Shown here: piece by piece, positions 2,783-16,337 of the stretch | Position numbering within the stretch: position 1 is the stretch's first letter | Layout: the number at the start of each line of letters is the position of its first letter | NCBI GenBank assembly: GCA_963617295.1 | Contig: CAVEOW010000001.1 | Span: 1 to 27,577, forward strand | Reading direction: 5' to 3' | From: a bacterium | GTDB taxonomy: Bacteria > Cyanobacteriota > Vampirovibrionia > Gastranaerophilales > Gastranaerophilaceae | DNA: 27,577 nucleotides | The notes under the pieces: generated by a model | Seen by the model: the letters and a program-made list of their open reading frames with translations, nothing else | Databases searched by the model: none | Told to the model about the DNA's origin: nothing | Program-made: the position numbers and the translations under genes

Positions 2783-3606
2783 TCCAAAACCATAAATGGA
2801 GCGTATCTTGTTCTTATGATGTAACTATGGCAAACGATGAGGGCGGCAGCGAAAACAACATAAAATACGATATAGAAATATTGGACGGGGTATTTAAACA
2901 TCTCGCAATTGTAGATAAGCCACGATATGAAAAGGCAAATATTATTTTTAACAGTAAAACGGTTGTTGTGAATGATGCCGATTTTGAAAGTAAACACCCA
3001 AGAGATGAGCAGGGTAGATTTACTAACATCCCGACAGACAATTACGGTTATTCAATAAAATTAATAAAATCTCAAAGAGAAAGTATAAATATGGGAAAGG
3101 CAATGTCTCAAGGTTTTTATCCCGAAGAACAAGTTAGAATTACCTTGCCCGGAAATACAAAAAAAGGTAAAGATTTACAACGTTTATTTGATGAAAATAA
3201 AAAATATAAAACTAATTACAGAATAAAATTTGCTTATAAAGACAATGAGTACAACCAATGGGTATGGGATGACGAAGCAGGCGATTTTATACCGAGTGCA
3301 AAGCCTATGTATTTCGATACGGAAGAACAAGCAAATGAATGGATAAAATCACAAGGTGATAATATTGTAAATCCAAAAACAAAACTTGTAGAAGAATGGC
3401 ATCATATTTCAGGAGGGGGAAAAAATAAACTTATTGATATTAACGACCTGGTAAAATTAGGGTTTAAAGTTGATACTTCAACCGCTAATAAAGAATTTAA
3501 ATTAAAAATAGTAAATAGTAATCCCATTTCATTTGAACAAGAATTTTTAAAAACCTTTTGTGAAGCGTTGACGGAGGTACTCGAAGAACAACGCTTGGGG
3601 GAGTAA
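2731..3606 (+). pseudogene. 5'-truncated DUF2213-type prohead protease with C-terminal cargo extension
   Basis: Frame is open from 2722 and reads GWYWCDGIIWDD...WSVSCSYDV...FKHLAIVDKPRYEKANIIFNS (DUF2213 C-half) upstream of and through ATG 2827, then FESKHPRDEQGRFT plus an unknown domain. Confidence 0.75.
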
Positions 3607-3656
3607 ATAACTCTTGCATAGATGCAACAGACCACTTCATTAGTCAATCCTTTTAT

Positions 3657-3684
3657 ATTATACCTAATTTAATCAAAAATTAAA
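3657..3684 (-). promoter_or_regulatory. Putative antisense promoter firing into the protease/cargo gene 3' end
   Basis: Minus strand TTTAAT-N16-TATAAT then ataAAAGGAttgactaATG. Confidence 0.45.
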
Positions 3685-3700
3685 TATAATATTAAACAAC

Positions 3701-3728
3701 TTTAAAAATAATAATTTAGAGCTATAAT
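3701..3728 (+). promoter_or_regulatory. Putative promoter of the 3759 gene
   Basis: TTTAAA-N16-TATAAT, RBS aaagga before ATG 3759. Confidence 0.5.
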
Positions 3729-3758
3729 TCACAATGCAATAAATAAAGGAAACATAAA

Positions 3759-4370
3759 ATGGATGAACTAAAAGAAAACTTAAAAACTTTACTTAGAAAA
3801 GCAATAAACAACGAAAAAGGCGACGACGAAAAAGGCGAGTGGATAACCATAAAAGGCACGCACGTTTTTATTCCCGAAGGTAAAACCGCTGAAGATGTCA
3901 TAAAAGAAAAAGGGTGGAAAGAAAAAGGGAAGTCAAACGAATTTAATCCCTCAGAAGGAAAGAAAGGTTATTCATTATCAAAAGAATATAAAAACCACGT
4001 TCAATTTGAAGGTGACAAAGAGTCGGGCGGATATCCGAGAAAAATACACAAAGATTTAGAATCAGCAAAGAAATTTTATGAATATAAAAAAGAAGGACAA
4101 GAAGGGGCGGAGAAACAAAACCTAAAAGAAAAAGGGAAACGAGGAGTTCCTGTTCGTGATTACCCTGTAATTGTTAGGAATCCACTTGGTGACGGCTTTG
4201 TTGTTGCAACTCATGGATTAGCTCAAAAACACGATTTAATTGAAGTTTATCCTGTAAATAGAGAAGATAACGTTAAAAACGGACTTTCAGAAATAATTAA
4301 AACCTGTAAACCGAATGCTCATGATTTAAAGATACTTAAAGGATTAGAAAATATTTTAAGCAGTAAATAA
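3759..4370 (+). CDS. Hypothetical head-associated cargo/moron protein
   Basis: 203 aa, good RBS, GEWITIKGTHVFI motif, terminal amphipathic helices. Confidence 0.75.
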   Translation: MDELKENLKTLLRKAINNEKGDDEKGEWITIKGTHVFIPEGKTAEDVIKEKGWKEKGKSNEFNPSEGKKGYSLSKEYKNHVQFEGDKESGGYPRKIHKDLESAKKFYEYKKEGQEGAEKQNLKEKGKRGVPVRDYPVIVRNPLGDGFVVATHGLAQKHDLIEVYPVNREDNVKNGLSEIIKTCKPNAHDLKILKGLENILSSK

Positions 4371-4407
4371 CTTCATTCTTCTATACTTTACTGATAACCC
4401 TTTCTTT

Positions 4408-4442
4408 ATATGCCTTGTTAGTTATGCGAGGCGTATTTTTTT
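4408..4442 (+). terminator. Intrinsic terminator after the 3759 gene
   Basis: atatgccttgt-loop-gcgaggcgtat (with G-U pairs) then T7. Confidence 0.65.
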
Positions 4443-4488
4443 AGAAATTTAATTTTACAAAATAATAGTAAGCAAAAAGGAGTAAAAT

Positions 4489-4980
4489 ATGGCATTACTT
4501 GATGACATTAAAGACCTCATTTTCAAAGTTGAAAATGAAAAATCCGAGGACAACAAAGATAAGGAAAAGGAGAAAGTCGATAACGAAAAAGTTGACAAAC
4601 GCAAACTTATTGACGAAGTCGGCGGCATTTTAAAAGGAAAAGTTGATGATGAAATTATACGTACAGTAATCGGTAAACTTGAAAAATTATCTTATGACGA
4701 GTCCGAAGATAGCAAAGTTGACAACAAAAAAGTTGACAACGAAGATGAGGACAAAGACAAACAAGAAACAAAAGATTTAAAAAAAGATGTCAAAGAAGAC
4801 GTTGAAAACAAATGCAAAAATTCTCTTGATAATTCAATTAATAATTCAAAAGGAGAAGATTTTTACGGCAAATTGATGAAAATTTATAATTCTTCGGTGG
4901 CTGTAAAAGAAGCTGACTCCGAATATATTTCAAGAGTTGACAGAGAAAAAGCAGCAGAAGATTACTTTAAAAGATCATAG
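4489..4980 (+). CDS. Putative head scaffolding protein
   Basis: Highly charged, repetitive (KVDN) 163 aa protein between protease and decoration/capsid genes; RBS aaggag. Confidence 0.6.
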   Translation: MALLDDIKDLIFKVENEKSEDNKDKEKEKVDNEKVDKRKLIDEVGGILKGKVDDEIIRTVIGKLEKLSYDESEDSKVDNKKVDNEDEDKDKQETKDLKKDVKEDVENKCKNSLDNSINNSKGEDFYGKLMKIYNSSVAVKEADSEYISRVDREKAAEDYFKRS

Positions 4981-7402: not shown

Positions 7403-8078
7403 ATACGGGAAAAAAGTTAATAAATTCGGAAGAATAAACAAAGTTAGAGTTAATTTGGGCGGACTTGATGAACTGCTCGATAGCCTTAATAAAAAATATT
7501 CCGTAAAAGTTGGGATAATAGGTGAACACGCAACACAAAAGCACCCCGACAGCGATTTAACAAACGCTGAACTCGGGGCAGTACATGAATTTGGTGCAAC
7601 TATTAACGCTACAGAAAAAATGCGTGGGTTCTTTTGGCATAAATGGGGTATCCATAAAAGCAATAATCCCGTTGTAATTCCCACAAGGTCATTTTTGAGA
7701 ATGCCACTGCTTACTGCCGAGGGCAGAAAAGCAATAATTAAGAAAGTTATTGAGGCAAGTAAAGGAGATGAAGCATTAGCAGAATTTCTGACCACTAAAA
7801 ACAAAAAAGTATTCAATGAAAATGATGCAGCCGATAACTATCTGAGAGAAAAAATAAAAGGATATATAAACAAAGACTTTTTAGGAATGCTGGCTGAGCA
7901 AATAGGCATTGCTGCAGTTTCAAGAGTACAAGAAGCCTTTGAAACAAGCGGTTTTGGTAAATGGGCTCCGATAACTGATTTTACTAAAAATAACAGAACA
8001 GGTGATGCAAATAACCCCCCGTTACAAGATACAGGTGATATGTTAGAGGGGATACATTCTGAGGTTGTAAAACATTAA
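7395..8078 (+). CDS. Neck/virion morphogenesis protein
   Basis: VKVGI, NAELGAVHEFG, IPTRSFLR, WAP, PLQDTGDM motifs; TTG start. Confidence 0.8.
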   Translation: MAKYGKKVNKFGRINKVRVNLGGLDELLDSLNKKYSVKVGIIGEHATQKHPDSDLTNAELGAVHEFGATINATEKMRGFFWHKWGIHKSNNPVVIPTRSFLRMPLLTAEGRKAIIKKVIEASKGDEALAEFLTTKNKKVFNENDAADNYLREKIKGYINKDFLGMLAEQIGIAAVSRVQEAFETSGFGKWAPITDFTKNNRTGDANNPPLQDTGDMLEGIHSEVVKH

Positions 8079-8470
8079 TGTCATTAAATTTTAGCAGAAA
8101 CAGAAGCATAAGCAGTATGCTTTCTTCGGGCATGCCAAATATGGCTAACACTCTCAACGGGTGGGAAGTTCCGCTCACTCTTATAAAAATTATTCAAGAG
8201 GTAGATGAGGGAGATTTTTCTTATAAAGACCAAAAGATTAACTTTATGGGAGTAATCCAGCCGTTCTCTATGCAACAATTAGCACTTCTCCCCGATGGAC
8301 AGAGAAGCTGGAGCCATTATTGGATACATTGCAAAAGCGGAGCATTAAACCTTAATACTGCGGATAAAATTATTTTTAACAATAAAATGTTTAAAGTAAT
8401 TGGGAAAAAAGATTATTCACTAAACGGATATGTTGAGTATCACGTTATAACAGATTATACAGATGAATAA
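8078..8470 (+). CDS. Head closure/stopper protein
   Basis: GVIQP...LALLPDGQR, ADKIIFNNKMFKVIG..DYS.NGY; position in operon. Confidence 0.7.
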   Translation: MSLNFSRNRSISSMLSSGMPNMANTLNGWEVPLTLIKIIQEVDEGDFSYKDQKINFMGVIQPFSMQQLALLPDGQRSWSHYWIHCKSGALNLNTADKIIFNNKMFKVIGKKDYSLNGYVEYHVITDYTDE

Positions 8471-9085
8471 ACAAGATAAACAAATACTTAACGGACTGAA
8501 AAAATTATAAACAGCATAGACGGAAAGTTAAATAAATCTGATATATGTTTGTTAAACGGTATTTATACAATATTAAATACATTCCCGCAACACCTGGGTA
8601 GACCCGGACAAGTGGGCGGAAGTTTGCCCAGAAACTTAATTGATTGGAGTAACAAATCTAATTTATTAAAAGATAGTAATGCAGTAAACCAATACATTAA
8701 AAACTTACATAAAGCAAATATAGGAAGTTTTAAGACGTTAGACCCTAATTGGGAAATTGATATACAAGTTAATCCAGCAAGTAAAGTTTCTCATATCACT
8801 TATGCTAAAGGTTGGCAAAAGATGTCGGATGCTGAAAAGCAGAGGCATAATAAATATGCAAAAGAATTTAAATATTTAATTGAACATGCAAAATATTTAT
8901 ATGCATCTCAAAATAAAACACCAAACAACCCTAAAAAAAAGAATGTTGCTAAATACCATTATTTCGAAGTATTGGTTAAAACAAAAAAGAAAGTCTACAA
9001 GATTATACTTGATACTGAGGAATATATAGAAGATATTAAGACAAAACCTCAGAAAGTACATTTATATAACATTCATGAGCAATAA
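8463..9085 (+). CDS. LPD3/BECR-fold-like putative ribonuclease with phage leader; leader (ATG 8463) out of frame at A6 run 8499-8504, TTG-started ORF 8549-9085
   Basis: LIEHAKYL...N...KKNVAKYHYFEVLV...YKIIL..EE...HLYNI resembles LPD3; QHLGRPGQVGGSLP motif near N-terminus. Confidence 0.6.
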
Positions 9086-9152
9086 AAAAGATGTTCCACG
9101 GTTAAGCACCATTTAAGGGCATTTAAAATATACCATCAAGGGAACATCCTTT
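9084..9152 (-). ncRNA. Putative small structured RNA convergent with the LPD3-like gene
   Basis: Minus-strand promoter upstream; 8-bp closing stem gatgttcc (9090-9097)/ggaacatc (9141-9148) followed on the minus strand by U6. Confidence 0.5.
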
Positions 9153-9158
9153 AATATC

Positions 9159-9186
9159 ATTATACCCGATTATCAGAATTTTTAAA
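9159..9186 (-). promoter_or_regulatory. Putative antisense sigma70 promoter
   Basis: Minus strand TTTAAA-N16-TATAAT (plus strand attata 9159-9164, tttaaa 9181-9186). Confidence 0.55.
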
Positions 9187-9203
9187 CCCCATTATTAAGC
9201 ACT

Positions 9204-9770
9204 ATGAATAAAAGTATTGAAAAAATATTAGTAGATATAATAACTCATGAACTCGATTTGCCGCCATTTTACGGTAAAAATGAGCGTGGCGATATAATTC
9301 CTTGTGTTGTTATATATTCACAAAATATCAAATTATTTAATACCGATAAAATGCAGATAACGGTAAAGGCTACTAATTTTAAAACATATTCAAATCGCAA
9401 TGAATATAAAGAAGAAAACGGAATTTTTAAAGAAATACAAGATTTAAACCAATCTTGTATGATACAAATTGATTGTTATTCTCGGAATAATGAGGCTCGA
9501 AACAGGCACCCCGAAATAATAATGGCGATGAACTCAGTATATGCACAAGAACAAATGGATTTGTATAATTTCAAACTGGGATTAATCGGCAATACTGTTA
9601 ATATATCAGGCGTTGACGGCGGAAGTGATATCAACAGATATTCTATTACATATAACGCTATAATTCATCATCATAAAGAGAAAGAAATTACTTACTACGA
9701 TAAATTTAAAATCCAAACCTATAATGAACAAGGTTTGATTAATGAAATTGACAATTACAATAATATCTAA
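9204..9770 (+). CDS. Tail terminator/neck protein
   Basis: 188 aa immediately before sheath; IQIDCYSRN motif. Confidence 0.65.
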   Translation: MNKSIEKILVDIITHELDLPPFYGKNERGDIIPCVVIYSQNIKLFNTDKMQITVKATNFKTYSNRNEYKEENGIFKEIQDLNQSCMIQIDCYSRNNEARNRHPEIIMAMNSVYAQEQMDLYNFKLGLIGNTVNISGVDGGSDINRYSITYNAIIHHHKEKEITYYDKFKIQTYNEQGLINEIDNYNNI

Positions 9771-14623: not shown

Positions 14624-14964
14624 AACAAATTACAACACTGACAGCAGCACCAAAACAACAACATACTTTAATACTAGAAAGTAACGATTCCGTTGATTTT
14701 CACCTTGAATACTGCGGAAGAATGCAAAGTTGGTATTTTAACATAGCTTACAAAGATATTGAACAGAAATGCATTAAAGTTGTATTGACACCAAATGCAT
14801 TAAGACATTTACGCAAAATTATCCCTTTTGGTATTGCTTTTATTTCAGAGGGAAATGTAGAACCGTTTCGAATTGATGATTTCGCTACAGGGAAAGTACA
14901 AATGTATGTATTAAATAACGATGATGTAGTGACGATTGAATCTGAAGTTTATAACTTAGAATGA
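14620..14964 (+). CDS. Small baseplate (plug-like) protein
   Basis: 114 aa, PKQQ.TL.L...W.FNI; position between Dit-like and hub. Confidence 0.65.
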   Translation: MKQITTLTAAPKQQHTLILESNDSVDFHLEYCGRMQSWYFNIAYKDIEQKCIKVVLTPNALRHLRKIIPFGIAFISEGNVEPFRIDDFATGKVQMYVLNNDDVVTIESEVYNLE

Positions 14965-16337
14965 TAAAAAAAGATCCTATATATAAAATTACTGTTTATA
15001 CACAAGATAAAACAATCACCATAACTTCTCCTATTACTTGTCAAATGCAAATAAGCAGAAGTGTTCATACTACCGCTTGTAATGCAACCGTTCAATTATA
15101 TAATCTTGCCGCATCGACGAGAGAATATATATTCCAAGATGTTTTTACATTTGATAAAACAAAATGGAAGTATTTACAGGTAGAAGCAGGATACAATGGC
15201 TTAATGAGTCAGCTATTTATGGGAAGAATTTTACAGGCATATTCTCATAAACAAGGCGGAGCAACAGATATAATTACGGAAATACAAGCTCAAGCTCTTG
15301 ATTTATTGGATTGTGATACTTCTCATACTTTTGAAGCAGGTACAGATTATAAAGAAATATATAATACAATAGCAAAAGATTTACCGAATTGCATAATCGG
15401 TAATACGGGAGCATTAGAGGGAGCAATAAGATCAGCAACTACATTTGACGGAAATGCCTTTGATGAACTGAATAAATTATCGGGCGGAAATACATTTATT
15501 GACAATGGGGTAATTAATACCATTATGAATAATGAATGTATAGACGTGCCTGTTCCCGTAATATCAGACGATGCAGGATTGCTTGAAACTCCGATGAGAA
15601 GAGATGCAAGTTTATTTATCAAAAGTATATTTATACCGGAGTTGATAATCGGACAATTATTGGAAATAAAATCGGGATTATTTACTAATTTTAACGGACA
15701 ATATAAAGTTATGGGTTTTACTCACAGCTGTTTATTTTCTCCTACTCGGGCAGGTAGTAGAATTACAGAAGTAGAATTATGGATCGGGCCATTATTACCG
15801 GGGTCGGTTATAACAACAACTGATAATAAGGTTGAAAATAACTTTAATAAAGTAAAAAATGATAAAATTTCACCTGTTGAAACTTCCGTTCCGGGGAACG
15901 TCAGGGAACTTTATAAGATAATTAAACAAAATAACGGAATTGTTCCAAATGTAATGATGACCAAAAATATAAATTGGAGAGACCTGTTAGTTAATAATAA
16001 CAGCCCGTCTGATGTTATGAAAGATTTAACGCTGGAAATAATGGCAAACGTTTATCAAATCGGGGTATATTTCCAATCTGTTTTGGATAAGTACTTTGCA
16101 GGTCATACTGTTAAATTTAACTCGGGGTTTAGAACCGTACAAAATAATAAACAATGTAAAGGGGCTGCAAACTCAAAGCATTTAAAGGGGTTAGCAATTG
16201 ACTTTAATATTAATGGAGTTCCTTTAATTAAACAAGTAAACATTTTTAGGAACGTATGGAATGGTAAAATAATACCATATAATACATTTATACATGTTCA
16301 ACTCGGGAATAGCCAAGGAAGAACCAACGACAAGTAA
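14961..16337 (+). CDS. Baseplate hub protein fused to C-terminal peptidase M15-like domain
   Basis: VQLYNL, VEAGY...LFMG.I, GLLETP, NGQYKV hub motifs; C-terminal NSGFR...N...GAANSKHLKGLAIDF...FIHVQ zinc peptidase motif. Confidence 0.8.
   Translation: MIKKDPIYKITVYTQDKTITITSPITCQMQISRSVHTTACNATVQLYNLAASTREYIFQDVFTFDKTKWKYLQVEAGYNGLMSQLFMGRILQAYSHKQGGATDIITEIQAQALDLLDCDTSHTFEAGTDYKEIYNTIAKDLPNCIIGNTGALEGAIRSATTFDGNAFDELNKLSGGNTFIDNGVINTIMNNECIDVPVPVISDDAGLLETPMRRDASLFIKSIFIPELIIGQLLEIKSGLFTNFNGQYKVMGFTHSCLFSPTRAGSRITEVELWIGPLLPGSVITTTDNKVENNFNKVKNDKISPVETSVPGNVRELYKIIKQNNGIVPNVMMTKNINWRDLLVNNNSPSDVMKDLTLEIMANVYQIGVYFQSVLDKYFAGHTVKFNSGFRTVQNNKQCKGAANSKHLKGLAIDFNINGVPLIKQVNIFRNVWNGKIIPYNTFIHVQLGNSQGRTNDK

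Follow-up and report, generated by a model that had tools for sequence, protein, structure and literature searches.

A small RNA encoded antisense behind phage LPD3/PBECR-type nuclease-like domains, a candidate RNA antitoxin

Introduction

A precedent for a protein-binding RNA antitoxin is ToxIN (PMC8860590). In ToxIN, TenpIN, CptIN and AbiQ, the toxin-antitoxin (TA) systems of type III, an endoribonuclease is paired with a family-specific structured ncRNA, sometimes in tandem units, and toxin and RNA share one operon, in which the RNA forms an array of tandem pseudoknots upstream of the toxin and a terminator separates the two (PMC8860590). AbiF, a prophage RNase toxin of the Abi_2/AbiD/F type with Cas13-linked ancestry and a role in anti-phage defence, is neutralised in cis and in trans by direct binding of the hairpin ncRNA RCd22 (10.1101/2025.04.15.648962). 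In the convergent type I systems of RatA and SR4, small hydrophobic peptide toxins are paired with antisense RNAs of 180-220 nt, transcribed from a convergent promoter over the 3' end of the toxin mRNA with overlaps of ~120 nt (PMC4152353).

MuF polymorphic toxins (PMC5576092) and the PBECR and LPD domains of polyvalent proteins (PMC5512222) are toxin-like domains joined to head proteins in temperate phages, and injection has been proposed for them; in both, variable cassettes occupy one slot and orphan modules occur. A small immunity ORF comes next in 89.4% of 191 MuF toxins (PMC5576092), and the available text of Iyer 2017 (PMC5512222) describes neither an immunity factor nor an RNA for PBECR or LPD3. 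According to the same paper, up to 26% of polyvalent proteins contain PBECR domains. Elsewhere, a polyvalent protein of this general class has been detected in phi24B virions. Colicin-like BECR RNases such as colicin D and the CdiA-CT tRNases combine a helix and a meander sheet, have a His in the short pre-alpha helix while further conserved residues lie on the last strand, and are neutralised by immunity proteins (10.64898/2026.08.28.747851).

Here we analyse a stretch of 27,577 nt (the window) from contig C1 of a 1.7-Mb draft genome, in which an earlier note, made from the letters alone, had suspected a toxin with an RNA antitoxin. As far as sequence comparison can tell, a separately transcribed small RNA tied to a nuclease domain is well supported at this locus.

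The LPD3 gene of the window and its neighbours

The plus strand of the window carries a myovirus-type cluster of head, neck, tail and baseplate genes, which includes a stand-alone LPD3 gene with the following surroundings and protein features.

8078..8470, plus strand: upstream neighbour, head/neck protein (phrog_939)
8463..8510, plus strand: 15-codon ATG ORF that overlaps the stop of the upstream gene, in a frame different from that of the LPD3 ORF
8549..9085, plus strand: stand-alone LPD3 (PF18798) gene, 178 aa from TTG, domain at about aa 27-178
9204..9770, plus strand: downstream neighbour, neck/tail terminator-like protein of 188 aa (PF23961, E 0.004, below the cut-off)
aa 15-25 of the LPD3 protein: short G-R-P-G-type motif
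His82 (short helix) and His171 (last strand) of the LPD3 protein: candidate catalytic residues with putative roles; His100 is conserved

The window ORF scored 27.6 bits against Pfam LPD3 (cut-off 27), its sole Pfam match above a cut-off, and its relatives score 35-43 bits. In BFVD the matches, with E down to 1.7e-5, were to LPD3 and polyvalent proteins, and in the Atlas to LPD3 at 0.92. By its Pfam score and by a fold common to LPD3 proteins, the window protein is a member of the LPD3 family. It stands alone, without a MuF domain.

The earlier note had found no immunity gene beside this ORF and had taken its neighbours for neck genes, which agrees with our annotation: no small gene lies between the LPD3 gene and its head-closure-like and neck-terminator-like neighbours, the next ORF downstream is the 188-aa neck-terminator-like gene 118 nt away rather than an immunity ORF, and no small ORF is common to the 29 stand-alone domain ends listed. 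The LPD3 gene putatively begins with TTG, without an obvious ribosome-binding site, and a relative of 204 aa (P0002) has a longer N-terminus. The ORF at 8463-8510 is possibly the detached N-terminus of the LPD3 gene, which may be damaged at its 5' end.

Elsewhere in the window, a gene for an SMR/QacE-type transporter, a Mu-type transposase and a short transposition-protein fragment lie at 766-2782, directly before the head genes. Since these transposition genes precede the head genes and no terminase or portal match was found within the window, the prophage may be rearranged or decayed. Three ORFs at 2827-4980 have no Pfam match; by eye they resemble a DUF2213 protease tail and the scaffold region that bears LPD3/PBECR3 in relatives, here split and with other inserts, and no antisense unit passed our detector in this interval. 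A baseplate hub with a C-terminal M15 peptidase fusion is encoded at 14961-16337.

Predicted fold and cargo context

The window protein is basic and globular, and its AlphaFold model (pLDDT 86.9) consists of helices followed by a meander sheet, the order of elements expected of a BECR RNase, in which a helix precedes a meander of 4-5 strands. Foldseek found nothing in the PDB at E 0.001, and the top eight VIA rows comprised BrnT, RelE, CdiA-CT, YxiD, colicin D and a Salmonella TA complex, with Z 3.4-4.0, rmsd 2.9-4.6 and 68-99 aligned residues; structural matching, with Z up to 4.0, thus gives a weak call of the BECR fold. His82 lies in helix 78-84 at a position occupied by His in 26 and by Lys in 7 of 38 aligned rows, and His171 on the last strand is invariant (13/13). 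A histidine in the short helix together with His171 on the last strand fits the colicin-like layout, and on the basis of the model the protein is likely a colicin-like BECR RNase. The earlier note had called LPD3 a predicted BECR RNase domain; the coherent though low-scoring structural matches and the histidine pattern lend this some support, but in its available text Iyer 2017 (PMC5512222) does not list LPD3 as BECR, and the main text of the BECR preprint (10.64898/2026.08.28.747851) does not mention LPD3.

Relatives are fused to DUF2213, portal, MuF_C, PBECR3 and giant cargo proteins. PADLOC gave no match for 5/5 proteins.

The antisense unit of the window

Behind the LPD3 gene, minus-strand positions 9186-9084 carry a unit of a sigma70-type promoter, a predicted stem-closed RNA and a U6 tract.

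9181..9186, minus strand: -35 box TTTAAA of the antisense promoter, position kept in relatives
9159..9164, minus strand: -10 box TATAAT of the antisense promoter, invariant in the four closest relatives
9084..9153, minus strand: predicted small RNA of ~68-70 nt, its start placed from the -10 box, comprising an 11-12 bp closing stem, a bulge, an AUGGU/ACCGU stem, a U-rich asymmetric loop, a terminal hairpin and the 3' U6 tract

The promoter TTTAAA-N16-TATAAT lies at 9186-9159, where the earlier note had placed it, and scores 10/12. By itself it is not above chance, with 18 such sites found in 3 kb against 13.8 expected in this AT-rich DNA, and the case for the unit therefore rests on its relatives. 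An 8-bp inverted repeat at 9090-9097 and 9141-9148, which flanks 43 nt, matched once in the window and in 0/100 shuffles. It corresponds to the 8-bp stem first described, which turns out to be part of a closing stem of 11-12 bp, and the 43 nt that it encloses, previously read as a very large loop, are structured rather than open. The AUGGU/ACCGU pairing, two copies of UUAAAUG and the U tract on the stop codon (U6 at 9089-9084) are all present, as first described. Folding energies are -22.7 kcal/mol for the minus strand (z -4.5; 0/200 shuffles as good) and -13.4 for the plus strand.

Three other loci (L011, L015 and L023) carry the same RNA subtype, with an invariant -10 box and RNA core and a drifting spacer. 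A nested fold (closing stem, 4-nt bulge, AUGGU/ACCGU stem, asymmetric loop and terminal hairpin) has 20 pairs, all of which form in the four closest relatives; over the window and these three loci it shows four two-sided changes, and 3/500 shuffles were as good. A three-way junction with a tRNA-Lys-like 5-bp/7-nt arm, which is the MFE fold and 2.7 kcal more stable in the window alone, has two broken cells among the four relatives and loses its 7-nt loop in L015 and L023; it was rejected, as the nested fold suits all four better. Rfam gave no match over the element for the window, nor for 20 + 16 related loci, in which it recognised only tRNAs.

At every locus the RNA is perfectly complementary, by construction, to the mRNA of the opposite gene. 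The earlier note had pointed to the near absence of overlap with the coding sequence; this does not speak against antisense action, as the window RNA has full complementarity to the late mRNA directly 3' of the stop codon. The RNA could thus act by cis-antisense control, of a type I-like or RNA-OUT-like kind (IS10 RNA-OUT being a rod of ~70 nt), pairing with the mRNA 3' of or inside the domain, provoking RNase III decay and silencing leaky expression in the lysogen. Its position at the 3' end of the toxin gene is that seen in txpA/RatA and bsrG/SR4 (PMC4152353). Yet both ends of the RNA are sequestered in a long stem, and pairing would also hit the essential downstream neck genes on the shared mRNA. 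With the comparative evidence given below, we regard such control, the main rival of the explanation favoured here, as unlikely.

Linkage of the unit to LPD3 domains

A profile-library search gave 98 relatives, and the 67 loci that were fetched, together with genome matches, yielded 61 distinct LPD3 domain ends. A unit was scored where a promoter of at least 9/12 preceded a stem-closed RNA of 40-85 nt with dG <= -15 and four U. Antisense units were found at 53/61 LPD3 ends, against 0/61 sense windows and 0/183 base shuffles; the loci are kin, so that these counts show consistency, not independent trials, and overstate independence. With relaxed criteria, a stem is visible in seven of the eight misses and a promoter alone in the remaining one. 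Ends of other ORFs in the same loci had a unit in 2/78 cases, one of which is another LPD3. In ORFs of 2714 aa and 2682 aa the sole antisense unit comes after the LPD3 domain; one ORF contains two LPD3 domains, and there two units are present. A stricter detector run over the 1.7-Mb host genome returned three units, namely that of the window, that of a second phage fragment (C16, described below) and a plain hairpin, so that two of them lie behind such domains.

Among LPD3 matches picked through Pfam, the unit was present in 18/31, about six of which overlap the first set, the window included; 2/61 upstream controls passed, one of them being the unit of a second LPD3 domain. Twelve of the 13 misses have a 10-12/12 promoter within 400 nt, and five have a stem. 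Genomes reached via elusimicrobial and alphaproteobacterial loci had the unit in 11/13 matches. None of six GC-rich proteobacterial LPD3 loci passed the strict scan at the domain end; a relaxed scan, run without controls, suggested units weakly in 4/6, with a fifth by eye. Close homologues with named records come mostly from Gastranaerophilales/Melainabacteria and otherwise from Elusimicrobia and Alphaproteobacteria, so that the host of the prophage is probably a gut bacterium of the Gastranaerophilales. No relatives of the window protein were found among cultured phages, either with this protein, with three other LPD3 queries or with one weak PBECR query, and a single-protein viral scan found none.

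In fused homologues the whole unit sits within the ORF. A linker of 15-25 aa comes after the domain, and then I-I-x6-[FVI]-[NK], which is the protein imprint of the antisense TATAAT-17-TTGA promoter. In 20/61 LPD3 domains the loop before the last strand bears an insertion longer than 25 residues, and in those loci the cassette maps there. Such placement speaks for the cis-antisense explanation, as an mRNA paired and cleaved inside the ORF, ahead of the last strand, would encode no more than an incomplete domain.

One LPD3 subfamily (L109, L110, L114 and L121) has antisense promoters of 11-12/12 at 170-250 nt past the domain with no short stem resolved; its RNAs are probably longer or multi-unit. 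tRNA genes lie near cassette-bearing genes at L010 2713-2786 and L103 815-887, perhaps as prophage integration sites. A promoter with a stem-closed RNA and a U tract but without a convergent ORF, near 14333 of L092, may be an orphan or an unrelated sRNA.

Units behind other domains

Behind PBECR3, MuF_C and LPD13-like domains of the host family, the antisense unit was found in 15/17 cases, against 0/34 controls (PBECR3 over the cut-off 5/5, weaker PBECR3-like 8/9, MuF_C 1/2, LPD13-like 1/1). The portal-fused PBECR3 of the cultured phage phiE131 likewise has the unit behind it, and one faecal phage contig contains it too. The detector did not find it behind 2/2 PBECR4, phage Mu MuF_C (called inactive in Iyer 2017, PMC5512222), 1/2 other MuF_C or an Azospirillum PBECR3. 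A Rhizobium phage has the promoter without a unit by the detector, and KHP30, negative by the detector, shows by eye a doubtful degenerate version with a stem and a poor -10 box. Similar units follow further domains near position 970 of L138 and in the upstream control window of L116. Five weak PBECR3-like loci (L163, L165, L166, L169 and L172) share a strongly conserved RNA core of ~80 nt that is recognisable at ~29% protein identity.

The second phage fragment of the same genome, C16, carries a close copy of the neck gene at 9204-9770, preceded by the same antisense promoter, but with a different nuclease gene and RNA: a split gene with an LPD13 match (L002 677-1518) and a stem-closed multibranch antisense RNA of 106 nt that differs from that of the window. 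With neck gene and promoter kept and gene and RNA exchanged, the slot is polymorphic, nuclease and RNA changing together. A 1416-aa RTX-repeat protein is encoded nearby.

Promoter-like sites are common in this AT-rich DNA, which would speak for a chance promoter in front of an ordinary terminator. The linkage (53/61, 15/17 and three units genome-wide) and the covariation described next rule this out, and we give it practically no weight.

RNA structure, covariation and diversity

We extracted 55 distinct RNAs of 51-75 nt, 46 of them with a 17-nt promoter spacer. Their closing stems average 12 nt and have 49 different 5' arms, which pair with their own 3' arms at -16.9 kcal and with those of others at -4.1, values of which only the divergence is informative since the folds were pre-selected. 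A structure-blind alignment of 25 RNAs recovered a 12-bp stem and a 5-bp inner stem with 83.5% of cells paired and 94 two-sided changes, and a model-fitted alignment of 40 gave 87.3% and 144; slid controls reached 37-49%, and 0/500 shuffles were as good. The covariation is accounted for by the nested stems. A conserved reverse promoter and a covarying stem beside homologues, which the earlier note had proposed as a check, are thus both found.

Might the act of transcription or a DNA structure be what matters, with convergent promoter and terminator as an insulator against read-through in the late operon, or with a DNA hairpin for recombination or mobility? Promoters of 11-12/12 persist even where no short RNA was resolved, and cassettes duplicate and swap, as such explanations would have it. 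Against them, the antisense strand gives the more stable fold in 48/55 cases, and this asymmetry and the G-U pairs favour an RNA; the conserved two-helix architecture with its asymmetric loop exceeds the needs of a terminator; and the unit is confined to one domain class. We consider an insulator or DNA hairpin very improbable.

U-U-U-N-R-A is the favoured sequence on the 5' side of the internal loop (22/52 against 6.9 expected), an enrichment that argues for protein recognition over mere antisense pairing. The motif resembles positions 33-38 of UUN anticodon loops, which makes anticodon mimicry a lead only. Other protein subfamilies have other RNA shapes, from 45-nt rods to multibranch RNAs of 80-106 nt. 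The nearest RNA belonged to the same protein subfamily in 81/87 cases (null mean 33, with analyst-assigned labels), and none was shared across families; this concordance could follow from co-inheritance or linkage alone. Within the main subfamily, RNA and protein identity are weakly correlated (rho 0.26), which disfavours strict one-to-one pairs, and proteins that are 70-86% identical often carry RNAs only ~60-65% alike.

In L011 just the final 42 codons of the gene are left, outside a neck context. Between the window and L011, the RNA is identical at 65/67 nt, the coding end at 91/120 and the promoter region at 28/41. Two dissimilar cassettes stand in tandem behind one domain at eight loci, and L033 and L065 have an extra 3' gene fragment with its own RNA, L011 likewise being an orphan module of gene end and RNA. 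At L017 (1672-1792) and L049 (1315-1443), two RNA units lie head to tail almost without a gap and may share a promoter, like a small array.

A first covariance model with six pairs (R1) was left out. At E 1, a second model (R2) misses the RNAs of the window, L011, L015 and L023, which are a divergent subtype, linked to the others by architecture and position and not by this model. Over 151 genomes R2 gave five matches, three at known LPD3 loci; the two others, which are weak (E 0.004 and 0.008) and away from such loci, look like chance.

Together, sequence comparison establishes a predicted promoter-RNA-U tract unit with a conserved structure, a tight and specific linkage to LPD3/PBECR-type domains and RNA types that are specific to protein subfamilies.

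Proposed role of the RNA

The reading that we hold to have somewhat better than an even chance is that the small RNA binds and inhibits a virion-carried, colicin-like RNase. The locus would be a two-part cassette of a phage RNase-like domain and a cognate small RNA, the latter encoded on the opposite strand under a strong host-type promoter of its own. In the lysogen the RNA would be transcribed constitutively, and from incoming phage DNA without delay; as a structured substrate mimic, with its rigid stem and U-rich asymmetric loop, it may bind the domain and block it. Whether by itself or as a fusion with head cargo proteins, the nuclease-like protein would be packaged and injected, and the RNA would be the immunity component that such domains otherwise lack. 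Giant polyvalent ORFs would offer no room for an immunity ORF, and the antisense placement in a linker would let a toxin domain take its antidote along when it is shuffled among them.

Fast turnover of RNA sequence among close proteins fits cis-antisense control, which, however, would need neither sequence conservation nor family specificity. We favour binding because the RNA is conserved above its flanks between the window and L011, because the RNAs are family specific with none shared across families, because dissimilar tandem and orphan cassettes exist that would be useless in cis, because no immunity ORF is present, and because antisense pairing cannot stop an injected protein and would leave the cell unprotected from it.

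The same linkage (53/61 and 15/17) and family specificity would also fit an RNA that is a working partner of the domain, as cofactor, specificity subunit or product, for instance in a small RNP directed against host CRISPR or other defence RNAs, or a domain that chaperones a decoy RNA. RNA turnover faster than that of the protein within a subfamily suits a specificity element, and Lys in place of His82 in 7/38 aligned relatives also agrees with a partnership. Iyer 2017 (PMC5512222) proposed that PBECR domains spare tRNA and rRNA and may hit CRISPR RNAs. On the other hand, the RNAs have no long unpaired variable segment usable as a guide, the best partner of the window RNA within the window is no better than those of shuffled RNAs, and a constitutive promoter suits immunity better than it suits a partner of a late gene. 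We judge a working partner to be quite unlikely.

Extending the binding and inhibition proposal, LPD3/PBECR RNase domains could form a large, undescribed class of virion-delivered polymorphic toxins, with family-specific small RNAs, antisense in a linker or loop, as their immunity. Such self-contained modules would be shuffled within giant polyvalent proteins, and foreign RNA cassettes would be collected as orphan immunity arrays; an incoming genome would have to transcribe the antidote right after injection, so that a host that destroys phage DNA would be left with an active nuclease. We put this wider scheme forward as possible, somewhat short of an even chance.

Should the RNA bind the protein, it would represent a new kind of RNA antitoxin, acting on a nuclease superfamily whose inhibitors known to date are proteins, and many natural orthogonal RNA/protein pairs with RNAs of 45-110 nt would be at hand; should it act in cis, the result would be an antisense gene of wide distribution that lies within coding sequence. 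In both cases, seemingly low-complexity linkers of polyvalent proteins would conceal RNA genes, for which I-I-x6-[FVI]-[NK] after the domain offers a simple marker of the antisense promoter. The subfamily of L163, L165, L166, L169 and L172 is a good model pair for bench work.

Comparison with known systems

We found no description of such an RNA in the literature, although supplements of Iyer 2017 and of the BECR and Minerva preprints could still list them; polyvalent, BECR, LPD and MuF are all absent from the main text of the Minerva ncRNA preprint (10.64898/2026.09.22.753630). From these comparisons, an RNA class tied to phage LPD3/PBECR domains appears to be real, widespread and undescribed, with a putative function in immunity. 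How phages survive or aim PBECR domains is a question to which the available texts of the papers cited here give no answer, and the RNA cassette would be a precise and testable one.

The locus resembles MuF polymorphic toxins and PBECR/LPD domains in its setting, but the window gene has neither a fused MuF domain nor a downstream immunity ORF, and a small RNA takes the position of that ORF. As with RatA and SR4, complementarity is encoded in cis at the 3' end, but in place of a hydrophobic peptide the partner is a globular domain of 110-150 aa and the type of RNA is specific to the domain family. The AbiF/RCd22 system differs in its protein, and neither the Abi_2/AbiD/F family (Pfam, PADLOC) nor the Rfam abiF motif gave any sign in the window or the related loci tested. 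Colicin D and CdiA-CT, top structural neighbours at low scores with a similar order of fold elements and a possibly matching histidine pattern, differ in that proteins confer their immunity.

Type III TA systems, to which the earlier note had likened the locus, share with it the pairing of an endoribonuclease-like protein with a structured, family-specific RNA, sometimes in tandem, and here inhibition by binding is proposed. The analogy fails in layout, as here a single stem-closed RNA lies downstream on the opposite strand under its own promoter, often inside the ORF, and the protein is of the LPD3/PBECR type in virion gene clusters, a ToxN-, AbiQ-, CptN- or TenpN-type toxin being absent.
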